Of a stretch of 64,000 nucleotides of DNA, positions 2,031 to 34,129 are shown one piece after another. Origin of the DNA: an uncultured bacterium (GTDB lineage: Bacteria; Oederibacteriota; Muellerivitia; Muellerivitales; Muellerivitaceae); assembly GCA_964525605.1 (NCBI GenBank), contig CAZGKT010000001.1:133153-197152 (forward strand). The letters are read 5' to 3'. The notes under the pieces are model-generated. The model was not told where the DNA came from and did not search any database. It saw nothing but the letters and a program-made list of their open reading frames with translations. Every line of letters begins with the position of its first letter. Position 1 is the stretch's first letter. The translations under genes and the position numbers were made by a program.

Positions 2031-3044
2031 TTAGAAATAAAAATCGAGGGCAAAATGGTGGTTGGCTCCTAATATGCCCTGATTTGTCCAGGCATAATCC
2101 AGACCCACGTAATTTTTGAATGCCGGAATTTTGACCCCGGCCCCTAAAAACATTCCTGCTAACCCGCCAATTCCCAATTGATTTTGATCCAGGCTTCCCT
2201 GGAACTCATATCCAAAACGCCCCACTAAAGTATCCTGATACCAATACTCCCCGCCTAAGTTAAGCATTATGGCGTTATCGTTTGGAATATTCATATCAAA
2301 GGCGGTTGTAAAATTATCGTCAAAAAGCCTATAAGCCAACCCCACTTTGAAATTGAGAGGTAGCGGATCCGAAACCTGATCGAATTTCATTCCCGGGCCA
2401 AGGTTTTGAATATCCATCCCAGCGGTCAAATGTGGAATTGGAGTTCGATAAAGGACCCCGATGTCAAAAGCGATATCGGAAGAGTTGCTGACGGAGGCCA
2501 AACTCTTAGAAATATATTTCACCACCAGACCCATATCAAAATAATAACTAAGCCGATAAGCGCCAGCTAAATCCACATCAAAGTAATTTTCACCTACCGT
2601 CCCGCCCGTAAGGTTTCCATTGCTGTCGGTGGCTGGATCGGTTCCGGTCCCAAGGATTTTTGCAGCGGCACCGATTGCGGCATCATTTCCTAATTTAGTT
2701 CCCAAGGCAAAGTAGCTGTATTGTACGGTTTCAATAAATAGGTCGTATTGGGCAGTAAAATGGGTTCCACCGAGTTGCACAAGGCCCGCAGGATTCCAAT
2801 AAATGGCATTAGCATCGTTGGCAACAGCAACAAAGGCTTCCCCCATGGCAATGGCCCTAGGCCCAACAGGAATCTTCAATTCGACCGCTCCCGTACTTCC
2901 GGGGCCACTTTGGGCAAAGAGCGGATTCCAAAAGGACGGAATGATAAACAGCGAGGAAATAAAGAAAAGGCGGACGGTGATTTTCAAGAAATTTTGCTCC
3001 TTCATTTGAATAAAATTATATCCTTTTACGGAAATACCCGTCAA
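2031..3044 (-). CDS. outer-membrane beta-barrel protein, FadL/TodX/PorV family (paralog 1)
   Basis: 337 aa with a signal peptide. N-terminal hatch-like motif '[28 protein letters not shown]', resembling the FadL-family 'GxGRAyAGEAAiADdAS...NPA' signature. Beta-strand-like alternation and a C-terminal aromatic residue (..ALDFYF). The start may instead be the internal Met at 3005 (MKEQNF..), giving a cleaner signal peptide. The ORF start as given overlaps the uvrA stop. Confidence 0.6.
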
Positions 3045-6014: not shown

Positions 6015-8135
6015 TTATTGAAATTGAGTGGCGGCCCCGGTCAAGCCCTGATTTCGAACCCCATTGATCTGTTGAAGTTGTGTGTTTGAAACAGTTAACG
6101 GACGCCCGGGGAAAGCTTTCAAATTAAGGGTAAACATGAGTTGTTCCCCATTTGTGGGATCGTCGGTATAGGTGATTTGGGCCTCCCAATCGTGGAGATC
6201 TCGGTAAAGACTGATACTCCGTGCCTCAAGTTTAGCATTAGTGACATCATAACTTTCAATCATGGCCATTCGGTAATTCGTAAAAAAGGCAAAATCAACT
6301 TCGCCCGCCATATCAAAGGTGGGAGGCACCCCCATGCTAATAAATCCCGTGTTAGAAACGTTAGGGTCCACAAAATTACCCGATAACCGGAAGCGCCACA
6401 TGTCGTTTTTACTTTTTAAATCAAGGACAGAGTTAACGTCTTTTAGAGCATTTGCGTTGACGGAATAATCAAAAATAGCCAGGTAATCATAAAAGGTTGA
6501 TGGGGTCAGATAAAATTCTTGTCGCAGGTAAGACAATCGAGCTGATTCGGCGATGACCTGGGCATTCATGTCATAGGACGTGCTTGTTCGAGCCCGAAAG
6601 TAGGTACCCGCATCAAATTCGAGTGACCCACTCAGAAGATTCGACGTAATCCCATGAGGGGAATCGGTGGCTTGTAAGTTATTCAGTTTTTGGGCATAGG
6701 TATAAGCAAGGGACGTGTTGAAAAAGTCTGTCCATCGGCCGCTCCAGGTATTATTCACATTTATACTGTGTGTTTCCCCCTTGTTGGTGCCGTTTATATC
6801 CAACACATCCTGAAAATTTTCATCAATGGCCGCCCGTGTATAAAGGGTTTGCGATGAAAACAAAAGCAGACTTTGGCTTAGTCCAAATTCACCGGTTAAA
6901 TGGTTCACATAATAACTATCCAATGCGGTCCAGGTGTGATCACCATTTAGCGTGAGGTCCCATTTCAGCCAATTTTTTCCGATGAGCCTTTGGGGGAACA
7001 AACTAAATCCAATTTGAGGAAGATTCTGAAGGGTTCTTTGGAAATTCGTTTCGTTAGGGTCATTGGAGTCACCGAAATTAGGGCTTTCTTGCCGTCTCAA
7101 AAGAAAACTAAGCGTGTACTGGGTTTTAGTCAGCGTGGTTGAAAGATCATATTCGCGATAAGTGGAAACTAAGGATGGATCCCTTCGGGCGGCAGAATAG
7201 TCCTGGCTAAAAAAACCATCGCCGGGAATATCCGCTTCCAGCCTCCCTTGGATACTGGACGAAAAGGCCCATAGTCCCCTGGCCCTAGATTCCCATCTAA
7301 ATCGTTTAGTATCTCCCTCTTCAATTCCATATCCATAGAGGGAAAGTACTGAATAATCATTTAGGGCGATTTCATGCCGTAATCCTAATCCCAGCCCTTT
7401 TTTTGAAAAATAATCCGTATAAAGGGCTCCATAGCTTTTCGGGTTTAGAAGATAGCTATTCGTTAGAAGGCCATAATTCCCAAGGTAATCGGATTGGCCC
7501 ACCGAAAGAGAAAATGGCGTGGAGAGATTGTGAATCGATTGAACAAAAAACGGAAAATAAAAGACGGGAACTTTCCCAATATAAAGAACCACATTTTCAG
7601 CAACGAGATAATTTCCTGAGTAAATAATGATCTTGTCGGCTTGTAAATGAAAGTGACGGTAATCCGGCTCGTAATCACATGTTGTGCTAATTGCCTCCTT
7701 AATAATTACTTTTTGAGCTTCAATGTCTATCTCACTCCCAAAACATATCCAAGGAGGAGACGTCGTCCGTATATTGAAGGCTTTGCCTTTCTGGGTTTTC
7801 AGATTGTAGGTCAGGCTTTGTGCTTCTATTTCTTCGCTTTCGTTTTGCCAAACAACATGTCCTTCAGCGTGGACATCCTGGGCTGTCACGTCATAACGAA
7901 TTTTATCTGCGTAGAGGTGAACTGTGCCCTGTTGGATATGAACATTCCCATGGGCCACTACGAGTTCTTGATCTCGAAGGTATTGAATAAAATCAGCCTG
8001 AATTCTCACATTGGCTTCAAGGTTAAAGGTAAGCTGACACTGCGCTATAGCACTTAAACCAAATGCAAAAATAAAAAATAACCAGCCTTTAACCACACGA
8101 GTTTTTTCCTTCTGTTTCTCCGGGAAATTCCTCAC
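6015..8135 (-). CDS. lptD: LPS-assembly outer membrane protein LptD (OstA family)
   Basis: 706 aa with a signal peptide. N-terminal OstA-like domain ('VVAHGNVHIQQGTVHLYADKIRYDVTAQDVHAEGHVVWQNESEEIEAQSLTYNLKTQKGKAF'). Long C-terminal beta-barrel region rich in aromatic/Gly alternation. Adjacent to, and 4-nt overlapping, an LptF/G-type permease. Confidence 0.75.
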   Translation of the reverse strand: MRNFPEKQKEKTRVVKGWLFFIFAFGLSAIAQCQLTFNLEANVRIQADFIQYLRDQELVVAHGNVHIQQGTVHLYADKIRYDVTAQDVHAEGHVVWQNESEEIEAQSLTYNLKTQKGKAFNIRTTSPPWICFGSEIDIEAQKVIIKEAISTTCDYEPDYRHFHLQADKIIIYSGNYLVAENVVLYIGKVPVFYFPFFVQSIHNLSTPFSLSVGQSDYLGNYGLLTNSYLLNPKSYGALYTDYFSKKGLGLGLRHEIALNDYSVLSLYGYGIEEGDTKRFRWESRARGLWAFSSSIQGRLEADIPGDGFFSQDYSAARRDPSLVSTYREYDLSTTLTKTQYTLSFLLRRQESPNFGDSNDPNETNFQRTLQNLPQIGFSLFPQRLIGKNWLKWDLTLNGDHTWTALDSYYVNHLTGEFGLSQSLLLFSSQTLYTRAAIDENFQDVLDINGTNKGETHSINVNNTWSGRWTDFFNTSLAYTYAQKLNNLQATDSPHGITSNLLSGSLEFDAGTYFRARTSTSYDMNAQVIAESARLSYLRQEFYLTPSTFYDYLAIFDYSVNANALKDVNSVLDLKSKNDMWRFRLSGNFVDPNVSNTGFISMGVPPTFDMAGEVDFAFFTNYRMAMIESYDVTNAKLEARSISLYRDLHDWEAQITYTDDPTNGEQLMFTLNLKAFPGRPLTVSNTQLQQINGVRNQGLTGAATQFQ

Positions 8136-9304
8136 GGGTTAACCCTAGGGTTGGAAGTTTTCTTCAGGCGATTTCGAACAAAGAAGATTATAGAAATCCT
8201 ATTTTCAATCCAAAAGGTTAAAAGGATTCCCACAAGCATCAAAAAGAAATTTGGAACCCACATCGCTAAAAAAGGTGATGAACGTCCCAGAAACCCTCCG
8301 TTATCGCCCAACATTAAAAAGCCCTCGTAAGCTGCTACCATGACGATTGCCAGTACAAATCCCAAATAAGAACCGACACGAGTCATCAGACCCAATGGGA
8401 TGCCGATAAAAACAAAGGCCAAAGCGGAAAAAGGCAAGGAAAACTTTTTATTAAATTCAACTTCATCGTATCGGCTATCTAATCTCTTTCCTTTTTCCTC
8501 GGTAATTTTTCGGGCTAATTCTTTGATCTTCATATTTCGAGAGCTGTTCGCATCTAAAGGTCCAAAGGGAGTGGTTTTGGAGCTTAAATCTATGTCGCAT
8601 CCAGAAAATTTTAGTTGTAACAAGTTTGATAATCCTGGTTCGATTCGATTACCAATTTGTTGCATAATCCCTTTTTTAAGTCGGAGGATGATATGAAATT
8701 GACCGTTTTGCTCCAACCGGCCTTCCTGAGCATAGACCATGCGATAAGGTTTTTCTTTTTCATCTAGCATCTCCACGATAACGTTTTTAAGCTTTCCAGT
8801 TCCCTCGTCTTTTTGGTCAACATAAAGAATATAACCCTCAAAATCTTTTATGAATGATCTTTCCTTTACCACTATCGTGGAATGTTCGACTTTGATTTGA
8901 TAATCCAATTTAAGGTAAGAATTATTTCCCCACGGGATTACGATATCCATGAAAACAACCAGCAAAAGACTAAAGACCACTGATAAACACGCCAATGGCC
9001 AGAACAAAGTCCCCACCGTAAGCCCACTGGCTTGCAAGGCCAAAAACTCTTTATCTGCACTCAGACGTCCGTAAACGACCAAAAGCGCCGTTAAAAATCC
9101 GATCGGAATGACTAATACAAGCACACTAGGCTGGTAATAAACAAAAAGGAGAAAGCAATTCCATATGCCCGCATGGTAAAGAAAAAGATATTCGCTGATC
9201 GGAATCGAAAAATAAAGTAAGTTCAGGAATGCGAGCCATATTCCGGTTGCCAAAAAAAAAGGAGGAAAAAGGGATAAAAGACAGTAACGAAGTAAAACTG
9301 GCAT
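8132..9304 (-). CDS. LptF/LptG-family (YjgP/YjgQ) LPS export permease
   Basis: 390 aa. Transmembrane helices at both ends flank a central ~150-aa periplasmic beta-jellyroll-like segment (topology typical of YjgP/YjgQ). Positioned immediately upstream of lptD in the same orientation. Confidence 0.7.
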   Translation of the reverse strand: MPVLLRYCLLSLFPPFFLATGIWLAFLNLLYFSIPISEYLFLYHAGIWNCFLLFVYYQPSVLVLVIPIGFLTALLVVYGRLSADKEFLALQASGLTVGTLFWPLACLSVVFSLLLVVFMDIVIPWGNNSYLKLDYQIKVEHSTIVVKERSFIKDFEGYILYVDQKDEGTGKLKNVIVEMLDEKEKPYRMVYAQEGRLEQNGQFHIILRLKKGIMQQIGNRIEPGLSNLLQLKFSGCDIDLSSKTTPFGPLDANSSRNMKIKELARKITEEKGKRLDSRYDEVEFNKKFSLPFSALAFVFIGIPLGLMTRVGSYLGFVLAIVMVAAYEGFLMLGDNGGFLGRSSPFLAMWVPNFFLMLVGILLTFWIENRISIIFFVRNRLKKTSNPRVNP

Positions 9305-9429
9305 TGATCATCCTTGAAAAATTGGGGAAGAAAGGCAGTAAATGAAATACCCGTTTCGAATCCCTTCCTGGAGGTGAAACCCAGTCATTATAGCGGATTC
9401 AAAAACGGGCTTGGTATGACGGAAAAAGG

Positions 9430-11622
9430 CTAGGCGGTGGGTTTCGAACCTTGGGACGTAAATGTTGGTATGTCCTGAATGAAACGTCCGTTTACTTGAG
9501 TGGGAACAGGTGGCAAACCTAAATTCATAGCTTCTGCTGAAGAAGCGGAACCTGAAGGATTGCTTAACCCAGGGACCTGAAAATCGTCCAATCCGGGAAT
9601 GCCAGCATCAGTAGAAACTATCGGAACCGGCGGAGCTAGTCCATCAATCCCTTCGGGCGGCAAACCGTCTAAACCCGCCGGAGGAAGCGAATTGTCCAAA
9701 ACAGGTGGAGGCAAAAACGAAGAATCACCCATCACTAAATCAGTCAGCGCTGGCGGAAGAGCTTCGTTTTGTAGTGTAGGGGGAAGATCCGCCGTATTCA
9801 AATCTGGAGGAACTGCAGAGACACCATTATCTAGTGGCTGGGGAACGTTCCCGGGAAGCGCTGCCATTGAGTCATCTGGAATTGCTGGAATTCCAGTATC
9901 GACAGGGTTAGGGAGCCCAGCCAAATTATCTTCGGGTATTACAGGTGAAGTTGCCCCTGGAAGGCCATCTGGTATTGGAAGTGAATCGGTCGAAGAAACA
10001 ACCGGCGATGAATTTAATCCGTCCGGTGTGGGAAGAACTGCCATTGAATCATCCGGTGACGTCAGGGCTGTGTTATCCATCAATCCTTCCGGAACAGGAA
10101 GAGCATTATCCTGGGGAGTCGAAAAGCCAGCATTGGCTTGATCTCCCGGCACGGGGAGTAATGCAGGACTTTCGTCAGGCAATACAGGAAGCCCCAGGTT
10201 ATTTGATGGGTAAGTTCCCGGTAAAACCGCCATATCCGTTTGTGGGGTTGGTAAATCGCCCAAAAGAATGGCCGAATTAGAATCCATATCAGCGGGAGGC
10301 AAAGAGGCGTCCTGATTATTATCCAACGGCAGCGTGTTTAAATCGGCCCCAGGATCAACGGGAAGCGAATTTTGCGCCATTGGTTCAGGATAAACGCCAG
10401 GCAATTCCGATTGAGGTAAAGGAGGGAGCCCTGCTGGCGCATTGTTATCCATTCCAGGCAGTGCGGGAACACTATTATCAGGTGTTGAAGAAGGAGCATT
10501 GGATGCGGCTGGTAATGCTGGGAGACCGGAATCTGGCGTAGCAGGTGTAGGAGCACCCACATTATTATCGGATGGGAGGGCAGGAAGACTCGAATCTGAA
10601 GGGCCGGGTGAAGCCATGCCAGTCGGAGCAGGCACAGGAGGTACAGACGAATTATCAGTTGAAAGTGGGGGAAGAGTTGAAGATTGCCCACTATCCGTTG
10701 GCAAGGGCGGCAAACCCGAAGCCGTATTATCACCGGAAGCGCCAGCAGGAACGGGAGGTAATGAACTTGTAGAGTTGGCAGAAGAGTTATCACCTGTCAT
10801 CGGTGGCAATACAACACCTGACCCAGAAGAGGCAGAATTGTCGCCCGGCAATGGAGGCAGGGCTGATGAAGGTGCTAAAGATGATTGAGGCATCGGCGGA
10901 GCTGCCGAATTGGAATCAGAAACCGCCCCTGGAAGAGGAGGCAACCCGGTTGAATTGCCGTTATCCGTAGCGCCGGGTAAAGGTGGCAATCCGGAAGAGG
11001 ACGCGTCTGAAGCGGCACCTGGCAAGGGGGGCAATACAGCAGAAGCCTGACCCGGAAGGGGAGGTAAAACTTCACCATTTGAAGACGACATTCCAGGGAG
11101 GGGAACGGACACCATAGGCGGACTTTGCTTCAACCGCGCCATCCTCACGCCATTATGATAACGCCGCATATCAGGGTGAGCAGAAAGCATGGATGGCAAC
11201 CGGTCCCGAATATCATTGGTAACTTTCTTCGCTTCAAGTTCATCGGAAGGATTGACGGTTAATTCAAGAAATTCAAAAGAAGAGGTGTATCTTTGCACTT
11301 CAGCTATTTTGATAAATCCAACCGGTTCCCCATTGGGAGAAAAAAGGGCAAATACATCACCTCTTTTAACGCCACCCAAATCGCCAACATCAATGTAGTT
11401 ACCGCTGTATTCTTTTCCAGGGGTATCCCTTAAGGCGATAACCTGTCCCCCGATAAAGGAAGCGTTGTGATGTAAATTCTTTAGGTTATTTTTAAATTGA
11501 ACAGAATAAGGTAAATCAGTACCCGTTGAAGGGCCTAAACCATAGGCCCCATTTCCTGGAGTCGATATCCCAACAGATAGGACAAAAGCCAAGGCGGGGA
11601 GAAGGAAAGAATAACGTCTCAT
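9430..11622 (-). CDS. secreted proline-rich repeat protein (N-terminal ~170-aa globular domain plus ~550-aa disordered LPPLPG/LPxxPG repeat region)
   Basis: 730 aa with a signal peptide (MRRYSFLLPALAFVLSVGIS). Dozens of degenerate 'GLPPLPG', 'LPALP', 'LPPV' repeats rich in Pro/Ser/Asp/Asn. No internal stops across 2.2 kb. The + strand of this region is G-rich as expected for CCN codons on the minus strand. Confidence 0.7.
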   Translation of the reverse strand: MRRYSFLLPALAFVLSVGISTPGNGAYGLGPSTGTDLPYSVQFKNNLKNLHHNASFIGGQVIALRDTPGKEYSGNYIDVGDLGGVKRGDVFALFSPNGEPVGFIKIAEVQRYTSSFEFLELTVNPSDELEAKKVTNDIRDRLPSMLSAHPDMRRYHNGVRMARLKQSPPMVSVPLPGMSSSNGEVLPPLPGQASAVLPPLPGAASDASSSGLPPLPGATDNGNSTGLPPLPGAVSDSNSAAPPMPQSSLAPSSALPPLPGDNSASSGSGVVLPPMTGDNSSANSTSSLPPVPAGASGDNTASGLPPLPTDSGQSSTLPPLSTDNSSVPPVPAPTGMASPGPSDSSLPALPSDNNVGAPTPATPDSGLPALPAASNAPSSTPDNSVPALPGMDNNAPAGLPPLPQSELPGVYPEPMAQNSLPVDPGADLNTLPLDNNQDASLPPADMDSNSAILLGDLPTPQTDMAVLPGTYPSNNLGLPVLPDESPALLPVPGDQANAGFSTPQDNALPVPEGLMDNTALTSPDDSMAVLPTPDGLNSSPVVSSTDSLPIPDGLPGATSPVIPEDNLAGLPNPVDTGIPAIPDDSMAALPGNVPQPLDNGVSAVPPDLNTADLPPTLQNEALPPALTDLVMGDSSFLPPPVLDNSLPPAGLDGLPPEGIDGLAPPVPIVSTDAGIPGLDDFQVPGLSNPSGSASSAEAMNLGLPPVPTQVNGRFIQDIPTFTSQGSKPTA

Positions 11623-11679
11623 GTAAACCTCGAAAGGTTGAGATGAAATTGAAGGCCAAACTGTTTTTCATGATAACAA

Positions 11680-11716
11680 AAAACGATAAAAGGGGGGATT
11701 TTTTTGCCCCCTTTTT
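11680..11716. terminator. bidirectional rho-independent terminator-like hairpin (GGGGG-N9-CCCCC flanked by A/T runs)
   Basis: 'aaaaacgataaaaggggggatttttttgccccctttttaa'. Lies between the start side of the Pro-rich gene and the stop (11728) of the convergent-by-position OMP gene. Gives a G/C stem with a T-tract on either strand. Confidence 0.5.
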
Positions 11717-11727: not shown

Positions 11728-12780
11728 CTATAAACGAGTAATGAGCGAAATGTAATTAATTGACCCGATGGAATTACTTACAAATGCGTAATCAACTTCA
11801 AACAGATAAGCCCATATACCCACCCCCACGGAAGGAGTGAAGTCATCATCATCGAATTGCATTCCTTTTGTTTCAAAACCGCCTCGAATAGCTACGAATT
11901 GTTTATACCAATATTCCAAACCGAGATGATAATTATTGAGAGATTGGCCAGCATAAAGGGTATCCGCATCAAAATTAATCTCAAGGGTACTTACCGGGAC
12001 GGGAGCACCGTTAGTGGTCACCCGTTTACCCAGTTCCTGAGTATAAGAAAGCCCCAGCGTCAAGCTAGGTTGGAGTGTTTGGGTTGGATTGGTGGGGGTA
12101 TTAGACCAAGTCACATATGATCCCCCAGTAATGTCCCGTCCAACTAAACCTATTGCAAATTCCTTGGCTGGTTTAAATATTAAACCAAGATCCGACCCAA
12201 TTCCAAAAGCCGAGGCCCCGGCCGCATCGGTTTTTAAAACCTTAATGGTTCCCCCAATCACTAGCTGATCCGCTACTTTCCATCCGCCTGAAAAAAAACC
12301 AGCCTGATCCGAATAAGAAGTCGTACCAATCACATTGGGACTTGATGCGTTGGTTATTGAAATCCCATCCACACCCAATCGCAGATAACTTATAGCGTAA
12401 GAGCCTGCATCTTTAGTATTGAAAGCAATATTTACAAAGTCGTAACTCTGGAGATCGTTTTCAGCCGCATGCATTGTTGTAATTTCAATATCGTCAATTA
12501 AAGCTAAGCCCGCTGGGTTCCAATATGCCGCCGAAGCATCATTTGCCGCCGCAACAAAAGCCCCTCCCATGGCCAATGGTCTTGCCCCTGCACCTTTGGT
12601 TAAAACTTCGGCGGTGTAATCTGTCGATTGGGCCCGAAGAGTAGCAACCCCTAATCCTAAAAAAATGGCTGACGTAAAAACAGAGATATAAAGTTTTGGA
12701 CCCACTGAACTTCTCCTCTCATGGACCAACAAATTTAGGGGCTTCACAAAAAGTTTATCAACCACCCCTTGAAAATTCAA
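11728..12780 (-). CDS. outer-membrane beta-barrel protein, FadL/TodX/PorV family (paralog 2)
   Basis: 350 aa with a signal peptide. Same N-terminal motif as the 2031..3044 protein ('GARPLAMGGAFVAAANDASAAYWNPAGLA'). Clearly paralogous. Confidence 0.6.
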   Translation of the reverse strand: MNFQGVVDKLFVKPLNLLVHERRSSVGPKLYISVFTSAIFLGLGVATLRAQSTDYTAEVLTKGAGARPLAMGGAFVAAANDASAAYWNPAGLALIDDIEITTMHAAENDLQSYDFVNIAFNTKDAGSYAISYLRLGVDGISITNASSPNVIGTTSYSDQAGFFSGGWKVADQLVIGGTIKVLKTDAAGASAFGIGSDLGLIFKPAKEFAIGLVGRDITGGSYVTWSNTPTNPTQTLQPSLTLGLSYTQELGKRVTTNGAPVPVSTLEINFDADTLYAGQSLNNYHLGLEYWYKQFVAIRGGFETKGMQFDDDDFTPSVGVGIWAYLFEVDYAFVSNSIGSINYISLITRL

Positions 12781-12987: not shown

Positions 12988-15489
12988 ATGGGTATAGTTA
13001 GCCAATTTCCCAAGCTATTCGAATTTGCAGCCCAATCATTTTGCCTATCAAGGAGACGATTAATGCCTGAGGTTAAACTTTGCGGGAAATGCGGTACGAA
13101 AAATCCATCATCAAATAGTTTTTGCGAACAATGCGGCAGTAAATTAAGCACACAAAACACTTCTTCGGCGACTACAGAAAAAACGGAAAAGAAACAACCG
13201 GTTTCGGTCAAATCTGCAAAGACTGGAATTAGTGCACCACCAGACTTAATAGTCGAAAAAAATCTCACTATCACCACCTCAGGGATGAACGCATCTAGCG
13301 TAACGGTCACATGGATGAATCTTTTTTATGTCGCACTACTGTTGATCACTATTTTTACGCGTTTTGATCATCTTGGTTCCAAACCGCATCATCATGATGA
13401 AAGCATGCACTCCTTTTATTCCTACCAACTTTTCAAAGATGGCGATTACGAATACAACCCAATGATGCACGGGCCCTTCCAGTTCCACGGAAACGCATTG
13501 ATGTATTACCTATTCGGTGTTTCAGATGCCACCTCACGGTATCTGGCAGCTTCTTTTGGCGTCCTAACAGTGATACTCGCCATGTTTCTCTCTCCTTTTC
13601 TCGGCCGCACAGGTGCCTTTCTGGCAACGCTACTCATCGTTTTTTCTCCAAGTTTTATGTATTTTGACCGTTTTACTCGGGAAGACGCTTATATTTGCGG
13701 GGCCACCTTTGCTATGGTCGTATTTTTATTCCGCTATGTTCGTTCCCGTCAACCCATCGACTTGTGGATTGCCTCACTAGGTTTTATCATTGCTTTCTGT
13801 ACCAAAGAATCCATGTTTATCACGATTGCCGTTATTGGGACCTATCTTTTTATTCGTCTGCTTCCCTGGCTCGATGTCTTTATCGCCGGAGGCTTAACTT
13901 GCTTGGGCGTTCTCTCGCAATTAGTCTTGAAAAATGTCGCTCCAGAAATGCCACAATCCACCCGTATTGTTTTCTTGCTCGTTTTTGCCGGCTCGGCTTT
14001 AGCTTGGACCCTTTACAACCTTTACATTCGATGGAAGTCAAACCAAGGAAAAAATTCAGAAAGTAACCTTTGGTCTGTTATCGAAAGCTTACGTATTGAA
14101 AAAGTCCAAATGGAATTAATGCTTTTTGCCGGTTGGTGGGTCCTGTGTCTCTTGTATTTGCGTCTATCCTTTTTGCAGCTTCCGCAGTTTACATTTATTT
14201 CAGTTCTGCTTTTGCTGGCCTACTTCATTCTTATTGGGCGTTTCGCTTGGTTGTGGCTCAGCAACGTATCCTCAGCCCTGACCGGTTCCATAACCATTGT
14301 TTCAGTTGTCTTTACCCTCCTCTTCACCACCTTTTTCACGGTGGGCGCCAATCAGCCGGATTGGCTAAGCCGGCTTCACTATCTTTTAAATGCCCTTTAT
14401 AACGGGGCATTTGGAGGTCTTGAATATTGGTGGGGACAACATGATGTCCACCGGGGTGACGAGCCTTTCTATTATTACCTGGTTGAACTTCCTGCCAACG
14501 AACTGGTTTCGTTCTTGTTTTCTGGGATTGCCATAGTTTATTACGGGGTTTTCAAGCGAAAAAACCTCCCACTTTTCTTGTCGTATTGGTACCTGGGTTC
14601 GTTGGCGCTCTTTTCCTGGGCTGGTGAAAAAATGCCCTGGTTGATCCTCCACCCCCTTCTACCTGCCTTGCTTTTAACCGCCTTTTTTGTGGGTGAAATT
14701 TGGGACGCCGTGCCCATCCAACAAGGTTGGCGATCCGCTCGAATTGCCGCACTTATGGGGTTCGGAATCCTCGCTTCATACTCCTTGCATTCGGCAGTTC
14801 TATTAAGCTTCTACCATGAAGCAAATCCCGTCGAACCCCTCGTCTATGTTCAATCGGGGCCCGATTGCAAAGAAGTGGAGCGAATTATAAGAGAGATTTC
14901 TTATGGAGAAACTGGGGGGCCAGACCTTCCCCTGACCATTGAGGATAAATGTTCCTGGCCATTCGCCTGGCAATTGCGAGATTTCGAAAAACGCAATCAT
15001 CCCTCAATGATTACTCAGGCCGATAACCCCATTATTCTTACCGGAACCGAAGCGGACAACCAATCCTATCCCATACTCAGCCAGGCAGGATATGTGAACA
15101 GGAAATACAAATTAAGGGTCTGGTGGGTTCCGTCCTGGTTTAAAAAGGGCTTTCCGGGCAGCGAAATGAATTTTGGACTTTTCTCGGACTGGCTTTTCAG
15201 TAACTTCATACCTGTCAAGCCGGCACGACCCGACATGGTGGATTGGACCGACCTTAAAAACTGGATTCTTTACCGGCAGGTTTGGTCCGATATGGGCAGT
15301 TATAACATGAGGATGTGGGTTCGCCCCGACTTGGCACAAAAATATGGGTTTACCGAAACGACACGTTCCGACATACCCGTTGATTATCCCAAAGCGGACG
15401 CCGTGACAACAGTATCCGTCCCCCAACCTGAAAATAAAAAAATAAATTTTCTAACATCTAAAAAACAACCCATGCCTAAAAAAAATTAA
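12988..15489 (+). CDS. GT-C-fold polytopic membrane glycosyltransferase-like protein (TIGR03663/PMT/ArnT-like) with N-terminal double-CxxC zinc ribbon
   Basis: 833-aa ORF. The probable true start is the Met at 13063 (MPEVKLCGKCGTKNPSSNSFCEQCGSKL: CxxC-X13-CxxC zinc ribbon). This is followed by >10 predicted TM helices with an early loop motif 'HHHDESMHSFYSYQ' (GT-C-like acidic DE motif), then a ~250-aa C-terminal soluble domain. The C-terminal domain resembles that of the N-terminal half of the 2053-aa protein. Confidence 0.6.
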   Translation: MGIVSQFPKLFEFAAQSFCLSRRRLMPEVKLCGKCGTKNPSSNSFCEQCGSKLSTQNTSSATTEKTEKKQPVSVKSAKTGISAPPDLIVEKNLTITTSGMNASSVTVTWMNLFYVALLLITIFTRFDHLGSKPHHHDESMHSFYSYQLFKDGDYEYNPMMHGPFQFHGNALMYYLFGVSDATSRYLAASFGVLTVILAMFLSPFLGRTGAFLATLLIVFSPSFMYFDRFTREDAYICGATFAMVVFLFRYVRSRQPIDLWIASLGFIIAFCTKESMFITIAVIGTYLFIRLLPWLDVFIAGGLTCLGVLSQLVLKNVAPEMPQSTRIVFLLVFAGSALAWTLYNLYIRWKSNQGKNSESNLWSVIESLRIEKVQMELMLFAGWWVLCLLYLRLSFLQLPQFTFISVLLLLAYFILIGRFAWLWLSNVSSALTGSITIVSVVFTLLFTTFFTVGANQPDWLSRLHYLLNALYNGAFGGLEYWWGQHDVHRGDEPFYYYLVELPANELVSFLFSGIAIVYYGVFKRKNLPLFLSYWYLGSLALFSWAGEKMPWLILHPLLPALLLTAFFVGEIWDAVPIQQGWRSARIAALMGFGILASYSLHSAVLLSFYHEANPVEPLVYVQSGPDCKEVERIIREISYGETGGPDLPLTIEDKCSWPFAWQLRDFEKRNHPSMITQADNPIILTGTEADNQSYPILSQAGYVNRKYKLRVWWVPSWFKKGFPGSEMNFGLFSDWLFSNFIPVKPARPDMVDWTDLKNWILYRQVWSDMGSYNMRMWVRPDLAQKYGFTETTRSDIPVDYPKADAVTTVSVPQPENKKINFLTSKKQPMPKKN

Positions 15490-15558: not shown

Positions 15559-16287
15559 TTACAGTTTTCCCAACCACACCATCCACCGAAGCTTCCAGAC
15601 CGTGCAAGCAAACAAGGTTAATTCTTTAAGAGAAAGTTTGCTTTCGCCTTGATGTCGGTTTACAAAAACAATCGGAAATTCTATGACTTTCGCATTTAAA
15701 CGAACGGCCCTGAAAAGAATTTCCACCTGAAACGAATAGCCGGGAGAAAATATTTTATTCAAATCGATTTTCTTCAATAGTTCTGCTCGGTAACATTTGT
15801 AACCGCCGGAGCAGTCTTCCGGTTGAAGGCCTAACAGGTATTTCGTCACCGAGTTGGCAAAACGGCTAATAAAAAAACGCCCCATTCCCCAATTCACCAT
15901 TCCCCCATCCCGTACATATCGGGAACCGATCACCAAGTCATATTCCAAGGCCAATTCCAACATTTTGGGGATATTCACCGGATCATGGGAAAGATCGGCA
16001 TCCATCGCGATCACCCGCCGATATCCCTTTTTTAACCCGAATTGCATCCCCTCCACATAAGCGGTTCCAAGACCACTTTTGGCGGAACGGTGAAGCACCT
16101 TTACCCGCCGATCTTTTTTTGCGATAAGGTCCGCAATTTTCCCTGTCCCATCGGGAGAATTATCGTCAACCACCAGTAGGTCGCAAGCCTTTGTGGCTAA
16201 GAATATTTTTTTGTAGACCGTCTCAATATTTCCCTTTTCGTTGTAAGTGGGGACAACAATTAAGGTTTGGTTTCTGGTTGAAGGCAT
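15559..16287 (-). CDS. GT2-family polyprenyl-phosphate sugar synthase (dolichyl-phosphate mannose synthase Dpm1/Ppm1-like)
   Basis: 242 aa: 'VVPTYNEKGNIETV', 'VVDDNSPDGTGKIA', 'RVIAMDADLSHDP' (DxD / D-A-D catalytic motifs of GT-A Dpm1-like enzymes). Confidence 0.8.
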   Translation of the reverse strand: MPSTRNQTLIVVPTYNEKGNIETVYKKIFLATKACDLLVVDDNSPDGTGKIADLIAKKDRRVKVLHRSAKSGLGTAYVEGMQFGLKKGYRRVIAMDADLSHDPVNIPKMLELALEYDLVIGSRYVRDGGMVNWGMGRFFISRFANSVTKYLLGLQPEDCSGGYKCYRAELLKKIDLNKIFSPGYSFQVEILFRAVRLNAKVIEFPIVFVNRHQGESKLSLKELTLFACTVWKLRWMVWLGKL

Positions 16288-16449: not shown

Positions 16450-17481
16450 CTATTTCCCTGGTTTCATAATTGGAACAAACCGAGCTACACGATTAATTCC
16501 CTTTTCAACCACCAAAACTCTACCAGCTGTATCCACGGCGATTCCTGCCGTTTCACCCATCGTATCCTTTCGTTGATAAATGGCTAAAAGTTTCCCATCC
16601 GTAGTAAATCTTAAGACCGCACCACGACTGGCGTTGCTCGCATAAATATTACCCTGGTAAAAAGCTAGATAGGGCATCTCCTCGTTTTTACCTTTCCAGG
16701 TTAAAACTTTAAAGGACCCTAAAAATCTTCCATTTAGATCAAACTTTTGTATCCTGCGATTGTCCGAATCAGCAACATAAAGAAAACCGCCGGGGTCAGC
16801 TGTTATTCCAACTGGTTCCTGAAATTGTCCGTTAGCTGAGCCAAAGCCGCCCCACTCCATTAAAAAATTACCATTTAAATCAAAAACTTGTATTTTGTGG
16901 TTACCCGTATCGCAAACGAAGATTCGATTGCCCACCTCCACCAGATCTCGAGGACCAAAAAAACCATGGTTGAATTTAGAAAGAAATTTTCCCTTTCCAT
17001 CAAACTTTTGCACCCTGTGGTTGAAAGTATCGCAGACCAACAGGTTTCCCTGTCCATCCACGATTAAACCGCTGGGTTGAACAAATTGCCCATCCCCTTT
17101 GCCTTGAGTTCCAAAAGCAAATTCTTCCTGGCCGTTGGAATCAAACTTACGGATATTATGTGCGCTGAAATCGCTGACATAAAATCCTCCATCGGGAGAA
17201 GCCGCCACCACCTGGGCTTCCTTAAATTTCTCGGATTTGGGCCCAGAACCATCCACTTCCATATCCGTGTAGATTTGGACAATTTTTGAGAGTGTCAGGG
17301 CCTGGGTCAATCGATCCACCCCCACATACGTCAAGACAGCCAAAAGGGCCAAACCAAAAACAACTGATAAAACCACCATCCCTTTGCCAATTTTTCTTTT
17401 TTTCGCATTTCCCGTCTGCAACTTCGACTTCTTTGAGCGGAGGGTGGATTTATTGGGCATGCTTTTCTCCTTAGGATTCAA
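16450..17481 (-). CDS. N-terminally membrane-anchored NHL-repeat beta-propeller protein
   Basis: 343 aa. Basic N-terminal tail plus TM (MVVLSVVFGLALLAVLTYVG). Six repeats of the 'G.F..P.G.a.d..G.iyVaD..N.RIQ.Fd..G.F' type (e.g. 'NHRVQKFDGKGKF', 'NHKIQVFDLNGNF', 'NRRIQKFDLNGRF'). Confidence 0.75.
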   Translation of the reverse strand: MNPKEKSMPNKSTLRSKKSKLQTGNAKKRKIGKGMVVLSVVFGLALLAVLTYVGVDRLTQALTLSKIVQIYTDMEVDGSGPKSEKFKEAQVVAASPDGGFYVSDFSAHNIRKFDSNGQEEFAFGTQGKGDGQFVQPSGLIVDGQGNLLVCDTFNHRVQKFDGKGKFLSKFNHGFFGPRDLVEVGNRIFVCDTGNHKIQVFDLNGNFLMEWGGFGSANGQFQEPVGITADPGGFLYVADSDNRRIQKFDLNGRFLGSFKVLTWKGKNEEMPYLAFYQGNIYASNASRGAVLRFTTDGKLLAIYQRKDTMGETAGIAVDTAGRVLVVEKGINRVARFVPIMKPGK

Positions 17482-17493
17482 TCAAACTTGATC

Positions 17494-18546
17494 TTATTGG
17501 CCCTTGATCTTGAAAAGGCTTCCAGCCCCTGCGTCAACAACAAGCAAGTTCCCATCCTTATCGACCGCCAGACCCATCGGAACGCGGAACAGATCGTTAC
17601 CAGCCGAATCCTTTTGAATCGAAGTCACCAAGGTTCCGTCGAGATGGTAGCAAAGAACCTGTTTGCCCCTGCCATCCGAAACGTACAGAAGCTGTTTCGT
17701 TTTATCCAATGCCAAGTGGGGTTCCATATCCACCTGATCCTTGACCCATCCCTTAACCGGCCATTGTTTTAGAAATTGTCCATCGGGGGAGAAAACCTGT
17801 ATCCTGAAATTTAATCGGTCGGCGACGTATAAATTTCCCGCTTGATCCAAAGCCAATCCGATGGGTTCATTGAATTCCCCGGGTTTTGTTCCCGGAATCG
17901 GGGCGCCTGACTTGGGGTCTACCGCACACCAGGTCCGTATTTTTTGGCCCTTGGGGTCGAATTTAACGACACGGTGTTTCCCAGTATCCGCGACATAGAT
18001 AAAACCATTTCCGTCGACCGCAACTTCTCGAGGTCCCCAAAATCCATCTCCAATAGCAAATGCCAACTTAGGATTGCCATTTTTATTGAATATTTGAATA
18101 CGGGCGTTCCAAGTGTCGGCGACATAAATAGTATCGTCAGAACCAATGGCAATACCATTCGGCTCGTTCAACTTTCCAGGAAGGGCTGAAGAAAGTTTCT
18201 TTGCGTCCCCACCGCCCACGTTGCCAAATCCCCCAAACTCACCTTGAAATTGCCAATTCTTGGCGGAGAACCGTTGAATTCGATGGTTCTTGCTGTCAGC
18301 CACAAAGATATCGCCCTTACTGTTGACGGCAATTCCGCGAGGATATGAAAACTGGCCCGGTCCGGATCCAGGAGTGCCCCCCATCAGTAAAACCAGGTTA
18401 GCTGCTGCAGGCGATGGTGCCCGGGAGATGATGGGTTTAGGTTTGGAAAGAACCATTGCCCATACCGCCGCCAAGGCCACTAAAATCAGAAGCCCAGCCA
18501 TGATGAGTTCCTTCAGTGTTACAATGCGTTCCCCGATCTTGATCAT
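17494..18546 (-). CDS. N-terminally membrane-anchored NHL-repeat beta-propeller protein (paralog)
   Basis: 350 aa. TM anchor (LIMAGLLILVALAAVWAMV). NHL repeats ('NHRIQRFSAKNWQF', 'NARIQIFNKNGNP', 'KHRVVKFDPKGQK', 'NFRIQVFSPDGQF'). 12-bp spacing to the downstream NHL gene. Confidence 0.75.
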   Translation of the reverse strand: MIKIGERIVTLKELIMAGLLILVALAAVWAMVLSKPKPIISRAPSPAAANLVLLMGGTPGSGPGQFSYPRGIAVNSKGDIFVADSKNHRIQRFSAKNWQFQGEFGGFGNVGGGDAKKLSSALPGKLNEPNGIAIGSDDTIYVADTWNARIQIFNKNGNPKLAFAIGDGFWGPREVAVDGNGFIYVADTGKHRVVKFDPKGQKIRTWCAVDPKSGAPIPGTKPGEFNEPIGLALDQAGNLYVADRLNFRIQVFSPDGQFLKQWPVKGWVKDQVDMEPHLALDKTKQLLYVSDGRGKQVLCYHLDGTLVTSIQKDSAGNDLFRVPMGLAVDKDGNLLVVDAGAGSLFKIKGQ

Positions 18547-18574: not shown

Positions 18575-21118
18575 TTATGGATTTAGTTTGTACAACATGG
18601 AATTCCCAACTGCGTATACCAAACTTCCCAATTGGGCGAATTTGGAAAAAGCACCCGTATTCGCCGAGTATTTCTGCCGTTCCGCATCTCCTACATATAT
18701 GTAATCTATATTGTATTTCGTTAATAAGTCCTTTGTTTTTGCGAGATCCATAGAGGTATAGATGGTTTCTACATCCCCCTGGCGACGTTGAATTGTATCA
18801 TCAGAATTCTGTCCCCGGATAACTGCCTGGTCCCAAGATCCACGCCACTGAGCTTCATGAAAATCCCATCCAAGGACCGTTGGAAATCCTGTCAGAGTGG
18901 CCACGGTATCTGTATCTTGATGATATGACAACCCCGGGCATTCCAAAATGATTGGCACCTTTACTCCTGATAAATTTCCCTGTTTTACAGTCGGTTTCAC
19001 ATTTATTTTAATCCATTGCGCCACTTGAAAATCCGCCGGGAAAGTTCGTTCGTAATAAACAGCTCCATCCATGGTAACGTTATCGACTGAAGAACCGTTC
19101 ATACGTGCTGTGAAGGCCAAAACGGGATAAAGGGCCGCCCCCAACAGCGCTAATCCGATCGTAAAACCCCAAACACTTTTTCCCAAGACAGTCCATTGCG
19201 GCCAAGCGTTTTCCATAATCCACTTGAGCCAAAAACCGGAAGCGAGGCTGAGTAAAATCCACGCCTGGTAATGAAACTTGAAAACCGTATTCATCCGATA
19301 AAGAGATCCTCCGGAAAAATGGTCTTTAATAAACACAATCTCACAGCCAATAATCAATAGAAAAGCAAGAAGTGCCAGAAGAGCAGAAAAAATGGTTTCC
19401 CTTGTTTCGGTCTTTTGAATGATCGATAGAACCGCCAACCCCGCCAACAGAAGCGTGGCGAACAGGGTTCCAAGTTTGAGGGCTTCTAAATCCAATAAGC
19501 CAAGCACTAATCCGATGGTTAATAAAGTAACAATCGGTATAAAACGACCCTTTGATCCGTTTAGATACGATATCAATTTATCGAAAATTCCCTGGAGTTG
19601 TACCTTTGGAAGAACCATGACCTCGGAGTCAGAAGCCAGACTCATTTCTCCACCACAAGTTCCACAGTATTTTTTACCAGGATTCTCTCTTCCGCAAAAG
19701 GAGCAGACAGGCTCCTCAGTCTTTTTCGTTTTGGCTTTACCGTTCTTTTCCAGATTCCCCTTCATGATGGATTTGATGATCAAGGCGGGAGTCAAAATCA
19801 AAAAGAACAAGCCAAATAGGATAAACAAATAATAAAGATGGGTTCGGTCCCCCACTATCCCCAGCCCTTTCGCTTGCGACTGAAACTTCAGATAAAAAGG
19901 TAGGTAGATGATGAAACTTCCAGCAACGATCGGAACACCCACTGTAGCTGTTTGAATTAACCAATCCATGAAAGTATCTTCTTTGGCAAGAGCCCAACCC
20001 TGTTGAAGAAAAAGACAGCTTCCTAATAAAAGCATGAAGGTTGGAAAATCCCAACTATTCATGAAGGATAGTCCGCCAAATAAAACCATGAGTAAAAACC
20101 AATAAATCCATCGAACAACGGGCCGTGCACCCAACACCTGCATGCCCCCGAAAGGCGTTCGTAGGAGCGAATAAGCCGCCGCGATCGCCAAAAGGACAAA
20201 CGGAATGGCCATCACATGGGGATGAAGGTCTGAAAGGAAAAAGCTAAATGAAGGAAACTCATTGATCATTTTATCCGTGGGAGGAACGGGAATGATCCGT
20301 GAGGCTTGAAAATAATCCCAACCATGGGCAAGAGGTGAAAAAAGAAAATCGAGGGCTGCCCCCAATCCTTTTGGGGCGCTGGGATTGGCTGGAAAATTGT
20401 AATAAGGGATTCGCAGGTCCCCTATTTGAAAACTCTGGATAACCCGATACCAATAATCCAAGTTTCCGAACAAGGCGAGAGCCGCCACAGAAAATAGAGA
20501 ATATCGATATCGGCGGGTTAACCCATAGGCCAGGGAAAAAGTACAAACCGCGGCCAAAGACCAAGTCAACGCAATCGCTAGGTTATAGGCCACGCCCGAA
20601 CCCACTCCGCTTAAAAGGGAAAGAGCGGAAACGATCATGTAGCCGAAGTAATAATAGGAAATACTGCCTCCAGAAAGCCAAGGATCCTGAGGAGGCATAG
20701 ACGGGGAAGCCAAAATGCCGTTGATCATGGCGAAATCCATGGGTTTTTCGGTCCCGACAATGTCTGGAGTGCGCATTTTGTAAGCACCGGCTATTAAAAA
20801 CGCCATGAGAAACAAAGATTCCACAACTAATATAAAACCCAGGTTTCTGCCCAGATATTCTTTGATGGAAACCCATTGATCCCAAAGAATCCATGAGGAG
20901 AGGAGAATCATCGTCAAGACCGCAAGCCAAACAGTCCCCCTTCCAAAGGAAACATAACCAAAGATCCAGGAAAAATAACCAACCATTAAAAGCGCAACCA
21001 CCTTACTAAAGGCATAGCCTTTTTCGGGAAGATGTCGCAAAAGGATCAAAGTAATTGGCAAAGCCAATATCCCCAAGATTTCAATCATGAACCACCAACC
21101 CAAAAGCGCCGCCATCAT
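18575..21118 (-). CDS. DUF2298 / 'YYY-domain' (TIGR03662-like) large polytopic membrane protein with internal zinc ribbon
   Basis: 847 aa. Signature 'GTEKPMDFAMINGILASPSMPPQDPWLSGGSISYYYFGY' (the YYY motif after the first TM block). Many TM helices. A cytoplasmic-loop zinc ribbon 'EPVCSFCGRENPGKKYCGTCGG' (aa ~470-490, nt ~19654-19710). C-terminal soluble domain ('PTVLGWDFHEAQWRG..IYTSMDLAKTKDLLTKYNIDYIYVG') homologous to the C-terminus of the 2053-aa protein. Confidence 0.65.
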   Translation of the reverse strand: MMAALLGWWFMIEILGILALPITLILLRHLPEKGYAFSKVVALLMVGYFSWIFGYVSFGRGTVWLAVLTMILLSSWILWDQWVSIKEYLGRNLGFILVVESLFLMAFLIAGAYKMRTPDIVGTEKPMDFAMINGILASPSMPPQDPWLSGGSISYYYFGYMIVSALSLLSGVGSGVAYNLAIALTWSLAAVCTFSLAYGLTRRYRYSLFSVAALALFGNLDYWYRVIQSFQIGDLRIPYYNFPANPSAPKGLGAALDFLFSPLAHGWDYFQASRIIPVPPTDKMINEFPSFSFFLSDLHPHVMAIPFVLLAIAAAYSLLRTPFGGMQVLGARPVVRWIYWFLLMVLFGGLSFMNSWDFPTFMLLLGSCLFLQQGWALAKEDTFMDWLIQTATVGVPIVAGSFIIYLPFYLKFQSQAKGLGIVGDRTHLYYLFILFGLFFLILTPALIIKSIMKGNLEKNGKAKTKKTEEPVCSFCGRENPGKKYCGTCGGEMSLASDSEVMVLPKVQLQGIFDKLISYLNGSKGRFIPIVTLLTIGLVLGLLDLEALKLGTLFATLLLAGLAVLSIIQKTETRETIFSALLALLAFLLIIGCEIVFIKDHFSGGSLYRMNTVFKFHYQAWILLSLASGFWLKWIMENAWPQWTVLGKSVWGFTIGLALLGAALYPVLAFTARMNGSSVDNVTMDGAVYYERTFPADFQVAQWIKINVKPTVKQGNLSGVKVPIILECPGLSYHQDTDTVATLTGFPTVLGWDFHEAQWRGSWDQAVIRGQNSDDTIQRRQGDVETIYTSMDLAKTKDLLTKYNIDYIYVGDAERQKYSANTGAFSKFAQLGSLVYAVGNSMLYKLNP

Positions 21119-27413: not shown

Positions 27414-27800
27414 TTACCGACAAAAAACCTGGGATCCCCCGACTTGAAGGTTATTACAAAACACCTTAAAAGAATATATTCCCGGGGCTGGAAAGACCAC
27501 CCGCCAACTGGTTATCAGGTCATGAAAGCTCATGTCGGAAAACAAAATCTTGCGTGGAGCCGAATCGGATACTTTGACCCCTTTTTCGTCAAAAAGACTA
27601 ATATCAATTTGAAATTCCCCTCCCGAAGGATGGTTCAGCCTGGTAAAAGTCATAAATTCAACCCCAAATGGATAACCCGGCGGCCCAAACCCTTGAAAAA
27701 CACCTCTTAAGTCGTAATTTTTATTCAAAACATCCTGAAAAATAGAATGACAACAGAGAAAGCTTGAAACCTTTGGCAGATTAAAATCAGTTGAGTTCAC
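27414..27800 (-). CDS. hypothetical small protein (128 aa), possibly translationally coupled to the upstream GT2
   Basis: Start overlaps the GT2 stop in an ATGA arrangement (27797-27800). No recognisable motif. The competing + strand ORF 27255..27710 overlaps the giant gene start and looks less plausible. Confidence 0.35.
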   Translation of the reverse strand: MNSTDFNLPKVSSFLCCHSIFQDVLNKNYDLRGVFQGFGPPGYPFGVEFMTFTRLNHPSGGEFQIDISLFDEKGVKVSDSAPRKILFSDMSFHDLITSWRVVFPAPGIYSFKVFCNNLQVGGSQVFCR

Positions 27801-33914: not shown

Positions 33915-34033
<119 letters not shown>

Positions 34034-34129
34034 ACATCGAGATCGTTAACTGTTATTAGCAGTTAAAAAGATTGATTGAAATACTATCCTTGAACCAAAG
34101 TGGATTAGGAATTGCGGTGAAGATGAAAC

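Follow-up and report, generated by a model that had tools for sequence, protein, structure and literature searches.

TonB and TolA are exported proteins in which a long proline-rich middle region lies between a conserved part at the N terminus and a conserved partner-binding element at the C terminus. In proteobacterial tethers of the LpoB and Lpp type, a flexible or extended segment lets a globular part cross the periplasm or the peptidoglycan or sets the distance between the membranes. Gram-positive bacteria possess proline-rich regions that span the cell wall, and Actinobacteria secrete O-mannosylated proteins rich in proline and alanine, e.g., Apa, which are substrates of PMT-type glycosyltransferases of the GT-C class. 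Analysis of a 64,000-nucleotide stretch of DNA from an uncultured bacterium (contig CAZGKT010000001.1; the whole stretch is referred to as the window) revealed a gene encoding an exported 730-aa protein with a very long acidic, proline-rich region. This gene is positioned directly upstream of lptF and an lptD-like gene in the same orientation.

The protein resembles TonB and TolA in that it is exported and carries its long proline-rich middle region between two conserved parts. In contrast to TonB, it has a cleavable-looking signal peptide instead of a conserved membrane anchor, its C-terminal element is a 22-residue peptide and not a TonB_C domain, its spacer is purely acidic with LPPLP motifs and not of the Glu-Pro/Lys-Pro type, and no ExbBD genes are located nearby. 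With LpoB and Lpp it shares the concept of a flexible segment of defined average length. However, it has no lipobox and hence no outer-membrane lipid anchor, it shows no sequence relationship to them, and its proline-rich chain is about ten times longer than the LpoB linker. As in the Gram-positive and Apa-type proteins, a long nonglobular segment occurs in a Sec-exported protein, and GT-C genes abound in the window. Unlike them, the protein belongs to a diderm organism with lptF and lptD, carries no sortase or anchoring signal, and is not enriched in any glycosylation motif. It also differs from the LptA/LptC/OstA bridges of lipopolysaccharide (LPS) transport, since no LptD_N, OstA_2, or LptC match was found, although the same scan detects such domains in the neighboring LptD-like protein; its head is predicted as a closed six-strand barrel and not as an OstA-type beta-jellyroll. 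Compared with cargo of the type IX secretion system (T9SS), the sorting domain of approximately 80 to 100 aa (Por_Secre_tail/TIGR04183) is missing, and only the 22-residue peptide is conserved. Literature searches on proline-rich proteins with LptD, on FlgT with proline-rich regions, and on LPPLP with the periplasm found nothing relevant.

The gene is real, conserved, and single-copy, and its architecture, motif enrichment, fold class, and synteny were established. New is a phylum-restricted family that combines a barrel head, a huge acidic LPPLP array, and a tail peptide. By analogy, the protein would work most like the proline-rich or flexible envelope-spanning tethers, i.e., TonB, LpoB, and Lpp in its role as a spacer, and it appears to fit no described family.

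Architecture of the proline-rich protein

Four parts were distinguished in the 730-aa protein: a signal peptide, a conserved N-terminal domain, an acidic proline-rich region, and a conserved C-terminal peptide (Table 1). The open reading frame (ORF) is intact, in agreement with the exported protein with a folded N-terminal domain and a huge proline-rich region that the first-pass annotation had described. In the relatives, the signal peptide ends with A-x-A or G-x-G directly before a nearly invariant Tyr, and it is the least conserved part of the protein (42 to 62% identity). Its short core, the small residues at positions -3 and -1, and the low conservation suggest, on inspection, that it is cleaved. 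No lipobox Cys is present in the signal peptide of the window protein, and no Cys is conserved there across the family. On inspection, the sequences contain no further transmembrane segment apart from the signal peptide, nor a sorting signal of the LPXTG or PEP-CTERM type. No TonB_C, OstA-type, or T9SS C-terminal domain was detected with Pfam or NCBIfam, and no beta-barrel anchor was found in the protein. Because neither an anchor nor a sorting signal was found, the periplasm would be the default destination after Sec export.

Scans of the 730-aa protein against Pfam, NCBIfam, and PHROGs gave no match (Pfam and NCBIfam at E <= 0.01), and Pfam likewise matched none of ten further members of the family, of which seven are long. 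A search of PDB sequences with a hidden Markov model (HMM) returned only noise (best E 0.089). No phage or mobile-element match was obtained, which speaks against the earlier concern that the gene might be unrelated mobile cargo.

Residues 26 to 172 have an ordinary amino acid composition, and every long family member contains a conserved domain of about 135 aa after the signal peptide. An AlphaFold2 (AF2) model generated from a 16-sequence alignment reached a pLDDT score (predicted local distance difference test) of 80 to 93 over residues 38 to 140; an alignment of 3 sequences had yielded a pLDDT of 40, and the model from 16 sequences was used. The N-terminal domain can thus be regarded as folded, as previously suggested, with a confident core of only about 100 aa in place of the proposed ~170 aa, followed by a basic segment of 30 aa. 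AF2 confidence is low over this segment, and a K/R-rich stretch occurs at the equivalent place in the relatives.

Searching for structures similar to the head in the PDB with Foldseek revealed the Vibrio LPHT ring (8z5n, chain 0; E 2.7e-4) as the best match and FlgT (3w1e) with an E value of 5e-3. Behind these came the crown barrels at the N termini of V1/F1 ATPases, along with MreC. FlgT, a periplasmic protein, assembles into rings and binds the extended tails of its partners; in the Vibrio LPHT ring it acts as a periplasmic scaffold with grooves to which the extended tails of FlgH and FlgP bind (bioRxiv 10.64898/2025.12.04.692373). The head differs from FlgT in several respects: the sequence similarity is not significant, one barrel stands against three domains, and FlgT has no proline-rich tail. 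No flagellar genes are present among the annotated neighbors (PorV-like, lptF, lptD, uvrA, glycosyltransferase, and NHL-repeat genes). The modeled head therefore weakly suggests a resemblance to FlgT and the crown barrels at the level of fold class, not family membership.

The middle region, residues 173 to 690, consists of 20% P, 13% S, 12% L, 10% A, 9% G, 8% D, and 6.5% N. It contains 53 acidic (D+E) and 0 basic (K+R) residues, only 5 aromatic residues, and no Pro run longer than 3. Motif counts were compared with those in 300 composition-preserving shuffles. The dipeptide LP was observed 43 times (13.3 +/- 2.9 in shuffles), LPxLP 10 times (0.3), and [LMIV]P[PA][LMIV]P 14 times (0.4), whereas PL was not enriched (10 versus 13.3). 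These results indicate that the LPPLP-type motif is not a by-product of composition. Pooling of 135 motifs over 16 family members gave the repeat unit (D/S)(S/N)(G/S)-L-P-(P/A)-L-P-G-D-N-S, and D[ND][SN] was enriched ninefold in this pool. Each chain carries 14 to 25 [LMIV]PP-type motifs, 3- to 40-fold more than the shuffles.

The LPPLPG-type repeats proposed in the first-pass annotation were confirmed with respect to motif enrichment but not with respect to regularity. The exact hexamer LPPLPG occurs in only 5 copies in the window protein, and a regular repeat spacing of 11 to 17 aa is confined to roughly residues 173 to 405 (approximately the first 230 residues of the region), beyond which the repeats are degenerate. 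Tandem Repeats Finder (TRF), applied to the DNA as the annotation had advised, found no tandem repeat, and DNA-level copies within the gene are only 15 to 31 nt long with 63 to 93% identity. Accordingly, the repeats are old and have degenerated. Long antisense ORFs within the gene are by-products of low complexity.

The length of the middle region varies twofold across the family, from 276 to 596 aa. Comparison with the orthologous locus L012 revealed 67% identity in the middle region (505 of 525 residues alignable), 62% in the signal peptide, 96% in the N-terminal domain, and 85% in the C-terminal tail; for comparison, LptD and LptF of the two loci are 82% and 72% identical, respectively. The nonsynonymous divergence (dN) of the middle region from L012 was about 0.24, close to that of LptF (0.19), which indicates that the region is constrained in its sequence and not in composition alone. 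The ratio of nonsynonymous to synonymous divergence (dN/dS), about 0.1 for the same pair, is only indicative because dS is near saturation at these distances.

The first-pass annotation had assumed a polyproline II (PPII) spacer that spans the periplasm several times. As a fully extended PPII rod, the 518 residues would have a contour length of 161 nm, and only in this form does that estimate apply. Polymer scaling of the same 518 residues gave a radius of gyration of 6.6 to 8.1 nm and a root-mean-square end-to-end distance of 16 to 20 nm. Since Pro accounts for only 20% of the residues, in runs of 3 at most, a coil is more realistic than a PPII rod. The Gram-negative periplasm is approximately 20 to 25 nm wide, so that a middle region that is disordered, as its composition suggests, would span about one periplasm width and not several.

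The C-terminal peptide of clades A and B follows the pattern L-G-(L/I)-P-x-V-P-x-x-V-x-x-x-(Y/F)-(L/I)-Q-D-(I/L/V)-P-T-(L/F), in which seven positions (L, P, P, Q, D, P, and T) are invariant among 11 sequences. A search of 5.8 billion proteins with a profile of this peptide found it only in fragments of the same family. It is therefore not a shared sorting signal.

Family distribution, reading frames, and gene order

A word-index search yielded only three relatives. An HMMER search of 1.84 billion representative proteins identified 19 family members, 17 of them with E < 1e-10, and every long member combines a signal peptide, the conserved domain, and an acidic LPPLP-rich region. Neither the head nor the peptide has a paralog in a six-frame HMM scan of the window and all loci, i.e., the gene is single-copy per locus. 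A GTDB scan placed eight loci, five of which are labeled candidate division FCPU426; the other three are labeled "bacterium" or "uncultured proteobacterium" and carry the same gene or gene order. FCPU426 is a candidate phylum of the rare biosphere (PMC10434106). The habitats of this uncultured lineage are soil and peat. On sequence grounds, the protein appears to represent an undescribed family restricted to this candidate phylum.

The reading frame is intact and full length in the window (730 aa), L012 (712 aa; a 102-kb JGI contig), L004 (780 aa), L005 (704 aa), and L009 (737 aa). A shorter form with a shared stop is encoded in L008 (481 aa; 9875-11320) and L011 (501 aa; 9908-11413). These two loci form clade C, whose proteins are Asn-rich (14% N) and end with ...DLDLPALPxTGxK. 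In L002 and L015 (SPAdes), L007 (MEGAHIT), and L013 and L014 (JGI), the frame is open to the contig end. It is broken in L001, L003, L006, and L010. None of the SPAdes, MEGAHIT, or JGI contigs interrupts the frame. The objection of a frame broken in independent assemblies, raised in the first-pass annotation, does not apply.

Some of the assemblies clearly contain errors. Neighboring genes are also broken in two of the four assemblies with a broken frame: in L001, uvrA is split into at least five frame pieces and the PorV-like gene into three, and in L010 the Agl23-like gene is split. L003 consists almost exclusively of short gene calls. In L004, lptD is in three pieces, yet the proline-rich gene is intact. 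The broken copies still encode the conserved C-terminal peptide in another frame. For the frameshifts in L001, L006, and L010, a location in homopolymers was not cleanly demonstrated. Frameshifts in clearly essential genes, e.g., uvrA and lptD, were observed in L001, L003, L004, L006, and L010 (three MFD metagenome-assembled genomes and two ENA contigs). Because gene calls are fragmented by such frameshifted assemblies, the family is represented in protein databases mostly by pieces of 100 to 250 aa.

Analysis of the genomic localization revealed the same-strand order PorV-like gene, proline-rich gene, lptF, lptD-like gene, uvrA, second PorV-like barrel gene, and crp-like gene (Table 1). An Agl23/PMT_2-like GT-C gene and a DPM1/AglJ-like gene of glycosyltransferase family 2 (GT2) are located divergently upstream. 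The gene order is conserved in all 10 loci with enough flanking sequence, down to an LptF identity of 48%, and the position directly upstream of lptF-lptD, which the first-pass annotation had pointed out as unusual, is therefore kept in the related genomes. The two PorV/PorQ-family genes flank the block of proline-rich gene, lptF, lptD, and uvrA, and both positions are kept in all FCPU426 loci. The end of lptF overlaps the lptD-like gene by 4 nt (8132-8135), which suggests translational coupling of these two genes. The C-terminal approximately 450 aa of the LptD-like protein match no model. No lptG is adjacent, and the arrangement is unlike the usual lptFG and lptD-surA.

Two hairpins are located close to the proline-rich gene, one on either side. 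The conserved element between this gene and lptF has a stem of 15 to 17 bp, an inner 5-bp hairpin, and an invariant TATAAT in the loop (9387-9392). Its free energy is -24.8 kcal/mol in the window (z -2.5) and -29.6 kcal/mol in L012 (z -4.6). Across six genomes of clade A the element is invariant, and it lacks conservation in clades B and C; because only wobble changes occur, covariation cannot separate RNA from DNA constraint. It may act as a terminator or an attenuator and overlap with the promoter of lptF. Co-transcription with lptF was at first inferred from a simple terminator scan and was withdrawn after the conserved long-loop hairpin was found.

Five GT-C-like genes were counted in the window, where the count comprises genes of the membrane glycosyltransferase or flippase type. 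Two tandem NHL-repeat beta-propeller proteins are encoded between the GT2 and DUF2298 genes, and a complete rRNA operon is located further along the window. The 839-aa protein encoded at 52831-55350 has a signal-peptide-like start, 25% Thr in PT/TxT repeats, and two similar globular inserts. Its C-terminal approximately 90 aa (YPNP...) resemble a T9SS-type sorting domain by eye, and Pfam and NCBIfam gave no match.

Table 1. Features of the proline-rich gene and its surroundings, with positions counted from the first nucleotide of the window
Feature	Position	Strand	Description
Whole ORF of the proline-rich gene	9430..11622	(-)	730 aa plus stop; ATG start; orthologs intact in L012, L004, L005, L009
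Shine-Dalgarno-like motif	11628..11631	(-)	GAGG, 6 nt 5' of the ATG, read from the sequence
Signal peptide, residues 1-25	11548..11622	(-)	MRR, 16-residue hydrophobic core, G-N-G before A26-Y27
N-domain core, residues 38-140	11203..11511	(-)	AF2 prediction: one helix and six-strand small beta-barrel
Basic segment, residues 141-172	11107..11202	(-)	6 K+R, 1 D+E; between barrel and proline-rich chain
Acidic proline-rich region with degenerate repeats, residues 173-690	9553..11106	(-)	Composition and motif counts
Conserved C-terminal peptide, residues 700-721	9460..9525	(-)	NLGLPPVPTQVNGRFIQDIPTF; alignment of 11 family members
Conserved hairpin followed by U-rich run	9349..9410	(-)	Between proline-rich gene and lptF; in L012 at ~8160-8225
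Terminator-like hairpin with T-run	11694..11711	(-)	Directly after the PorV-like gene; equivalent in L012 and L009
lptF	8132..9304	(-)	LptF_LptG, E 1e-66
lptD-like gene	6015..8135	(-)	LptD_N/OstA domain at residues 45-141 plus long C-terminal part
PorV/PorQ-family (FadL-like) outer-membrane barrel gene	11728..12780	(-)	PorV_fam 87 bits, just below the cutoff of 90
Second PorV/PorQ-family (FadL-like) barrel gene	2031-3044	(-)	PorV_fam 180 bits; cutoff 90
Agl23/PMT_2 gene	12988-15489	(+)	GT-C-like
DUF2298/chlor_Arch_YYY gene	18575-21118	(-)	GT-C-like
Gene for 2053-aa giant protein with DUF2298	21152-27313	(-)	GT-C-like
TMEM260-like O-mannosyltransferase gene	31753-33711	(+)	GT-C-like
PMT_2-like gene	45369-47648	(-)	GT-C-like
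Two GT2 genes	15559-16287 and 27797-28585		
Two tandem NHL-repeat genes	16450-18546	(-)	343 and 350 aa
rRNA operon	33916-39263	(-)	16S, two spacer tRNAs, 23S, 5S
Thr-rich PT-repeat protein gene	52831-55350	(-)	839 aa

A possible periplasmic tether and the competing explanations

The explanation favored here, although only tentatively, is that the proline-rich protein acts in the periplasm as a tether or spacer that docks at both of its ends. With 20% Pro, a net charge of -53, and no basic residues, the chain cannot collapse easily, and the presence of two conserved ends separated by such a chain suggests this function. The protein would be a Sec-exported, soluble component of the cell envelope from which the signal peptide has been removed. 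One conserved end would be formed by the barrel head with its short basic segment and the other by the 22-residue C-terminal peptide; between them would lie 280 to 600 acidic, Lys/Arg-free residues with hydrophobic LP(P/A)LP motifs spaced by G-D-N-S-type stretches. Each end would dock on a different envelope partner, and the anionic middle, resisting collapse and spanning about 16 to 20 nm on average, would bridge or fill the space between the membranes. With FlgT there is a precedent for barrels of this class to work as periplasmic scaffolds and to bind the extended tails of partners. The periplasmic location, the docking by both ends, and any link to Lpt are deduced from these features and have to be read as conditional.

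Since the gene is positioned between a PorV-like gene and lptF-lptD, the likeliest partners would be components of outer-membrane biogenesis or LPS export. That the partners are Lpt components, a narrower form of this explanation, is rather improbable. A specific version of it, in which the protein is a largely disordered trans-envelope component of the LPS/outer-membrane biogenesis machinery in FCPU426, whose ends dock on the sides of both membranes while the chain tethers the two halves, is likewise considered improbable. In this version, docking at the outer membrane would occur on the LptD-like or PorV-like barrels and docking at the inner membrane on the periplasmic domain of LptF. The C-terminal peptide might bind an open beta-jellyroll by edge-strand pairing, and the acidic proline-rich chain would supplement or replace the rigid LptA bridge.

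Several results weigh against a tether. A charge-hydropathy plot places the middle region on the "folded" side, a placement that results from its 12% Leu. The likeness of the head to FlgT is weak, with a TM-score of 0.35 on the full query; Pfam FlgT_C was matched by 4 of the 16 isolated N-domains, with no E value better than 0.1, and it was absent from the full-length proteins: ten further family members, of which seven are long, gave no match at E <= 1. The whole 15-kb block is syntenic, uvrA and crp included, and adjacency to the lpt genes is therefore weak functional evidence. Co-transcription with lptF-lptD is doubtful and not established because the conserved terminator-like hairpin separates the genes, and with hairpins on both sides the proline-rich gene may be monocistronic. 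The proteins of clade C (L008 and L011) terminate at their shared earlier stop without the C-terminal peptide. Together with the twofold variation in length, this argues against a precise two-ended ruler.

The protein could instead be a glycoprotein of the surface or the extracellular space, an unlikely explanation that nevertheless deserves serious consideration. It would form a mucin- or extensin-like brush, O-glycosylated by a GT-C enzyme and displayed or released for hydration, adhesion, or protection. The donors would be polyprenyl-phosphate-hexoses that are made and flipped by the neighboring GT2 and Agl23-like pair, and glycosylation would take place at the periplasmic face. The chain offers 100 Ser+Thr in 545 residues, and actinobacterial PMT mannosylates Ser/Thr in proline-rich segments of Sec substrates. 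The window contains five GT-C-like genes, among them one for a TMEM260-like protein O-mannosyltransferase. The divergent Agl23/PMT_2-like gene (TIGR03663, E 1e-71) and the DPM1/AglJ-like GT2 gene are adjacent to the proline-rich gene, and the Agl23-like gene is kept beside the cluster in every locus whose upstream flank is long enough. The pair of GT2 and Agl23-like genes is similar to Agl22/Agl23 of archaea, a system that synthesizes hexose-P-dolichol and flips it for glycosylation outside the cell (PMC11182771).

Analysis of glycosylation motifs did not point in the same direction. N-x-S/T sequons were found 5 times (5.0 +/- 1.9 in shuffles) and D/E-x-N-x-S/T not at all (0.5 expected), and the Bacteroidetes O-glycosylation motif D(S/T)(A/I/L/V/M/T) occurred 26 times family-wide compared to 28.7 expected. 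Known sequons are thus at chance, [ST]P is depleted relative to shuffles, and only clade C shows an approximately twofold excess of N-x-S/T (11 versus 5.7 and 16 versus 7.5). Neither an anchor for the outer membrane nor a secretion signal or a T9SS C-terminal domain was found. Lipid A or LPS could just as well be the target of the GT2/GT-C pair, comparable to ArnC/ArnT, and the GT2 also matches the ArnC model. The Thr-rich PT-repeat protein encoded at 52831-55350 looks like a better substrate, and since the 64-kb window holds five GT-C-like genes, adjacency to one of them is unspecific. The description of the proline-rich protein as an obvious candidate substrate of the adjacent glycosylation machinery could therefore not be supported.

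A self-associating network, in which the head binds the LP(P/A)LP motifs or the C-terminal peptide of other copies and thereby gels the periplasm or a pericellular layer, is considered quite improbable. The core of the motif is like that of SH3 ligands, and the gel would arise from head-to-tail or multivalent assemblies. The 14 to 25 [LMIV]PP-type motifs per chain correspond to a sticker-and-spacer arrangement, and small barrels of the class to which the head belongs form rings and bind extended peptides. The hairpins on both sides also fit this explanation, as the gene may be expressed alone, like many abundant structural proteins of the envelope. However, the fold matches of the head are six-strand crown barrels and not SH3 domains, and the basic residue that SH3 ligands carry is missing from the motifs, as the chain has 0 K+R.

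A function as a dedicated LptD accessory of the LptE or LptM type, with the head plugging or chaperoning the LptD-like barrel and the tail being incidental, is very improbable. In all 10 loci lptF-lptD follows the gene directly, none of the window ORFs scanned against Pfam or NCBIfam was recognized as lptE, and the head is more conserved than LptD. On the other hand, the protein has no lipobox and a terminator-like hairpin separates its gene from lptF. LptE has a two-layer alpha/beta fold, whereas the head is predicted to be a closed barrel.

A TonB- or TolA-like, periplasm-spanning energy transducer, suggested by the long proline-rich segment after an N-terminal hydrophobic helix, is effectively refuted by the missing TonB_C (PF03544) or other Pfam domain, by a short hydrophobic segment of 16 residues, the least conserved part of the protein, with small residues conserved at -3 and -1, by a chain without the Lys of the TonB Glu-Pro/Lys-Pro spacer, and by the lack of exbBD or tolQR among the annotated neighbors. 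A decaying or spurious ORF in low-complexity DNA, to which the broken frames in L001, L003, L006, and L010 and the long antisense ORFs could point, is refuted: neighboring genes are broken as well in L001 and L010, L003 has almost only short gene calls, no SPAdes, MEGAHIT, or JGI contig interrupts the frame, the far end of the ORF encodes the conserved C-terminal peptide, and the middle region is under purifying selection.

Implications for FCPU426

FCPU426 has no cultured member and almost no functional annotation. If the reading of the protein as a periplasmic tether or spacer is true, it would represent a new way for a diderm cell to set or bridge the gap between its membranes and possibly a new organization of LPS export outside the Proteobacteria. 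If the protein is a glycoprotein instead, it would lend itself as a substrate for work on the GT-C glycosyltransferases, in which this lineage is unusually rich. At the least, the head barrel and the C-terminal peptide define a new domain family and a clean marker for FCPU426, and the protein provides a well-defined test case for disordered, multivalent proline-rich proteins of the bacterial envelope.

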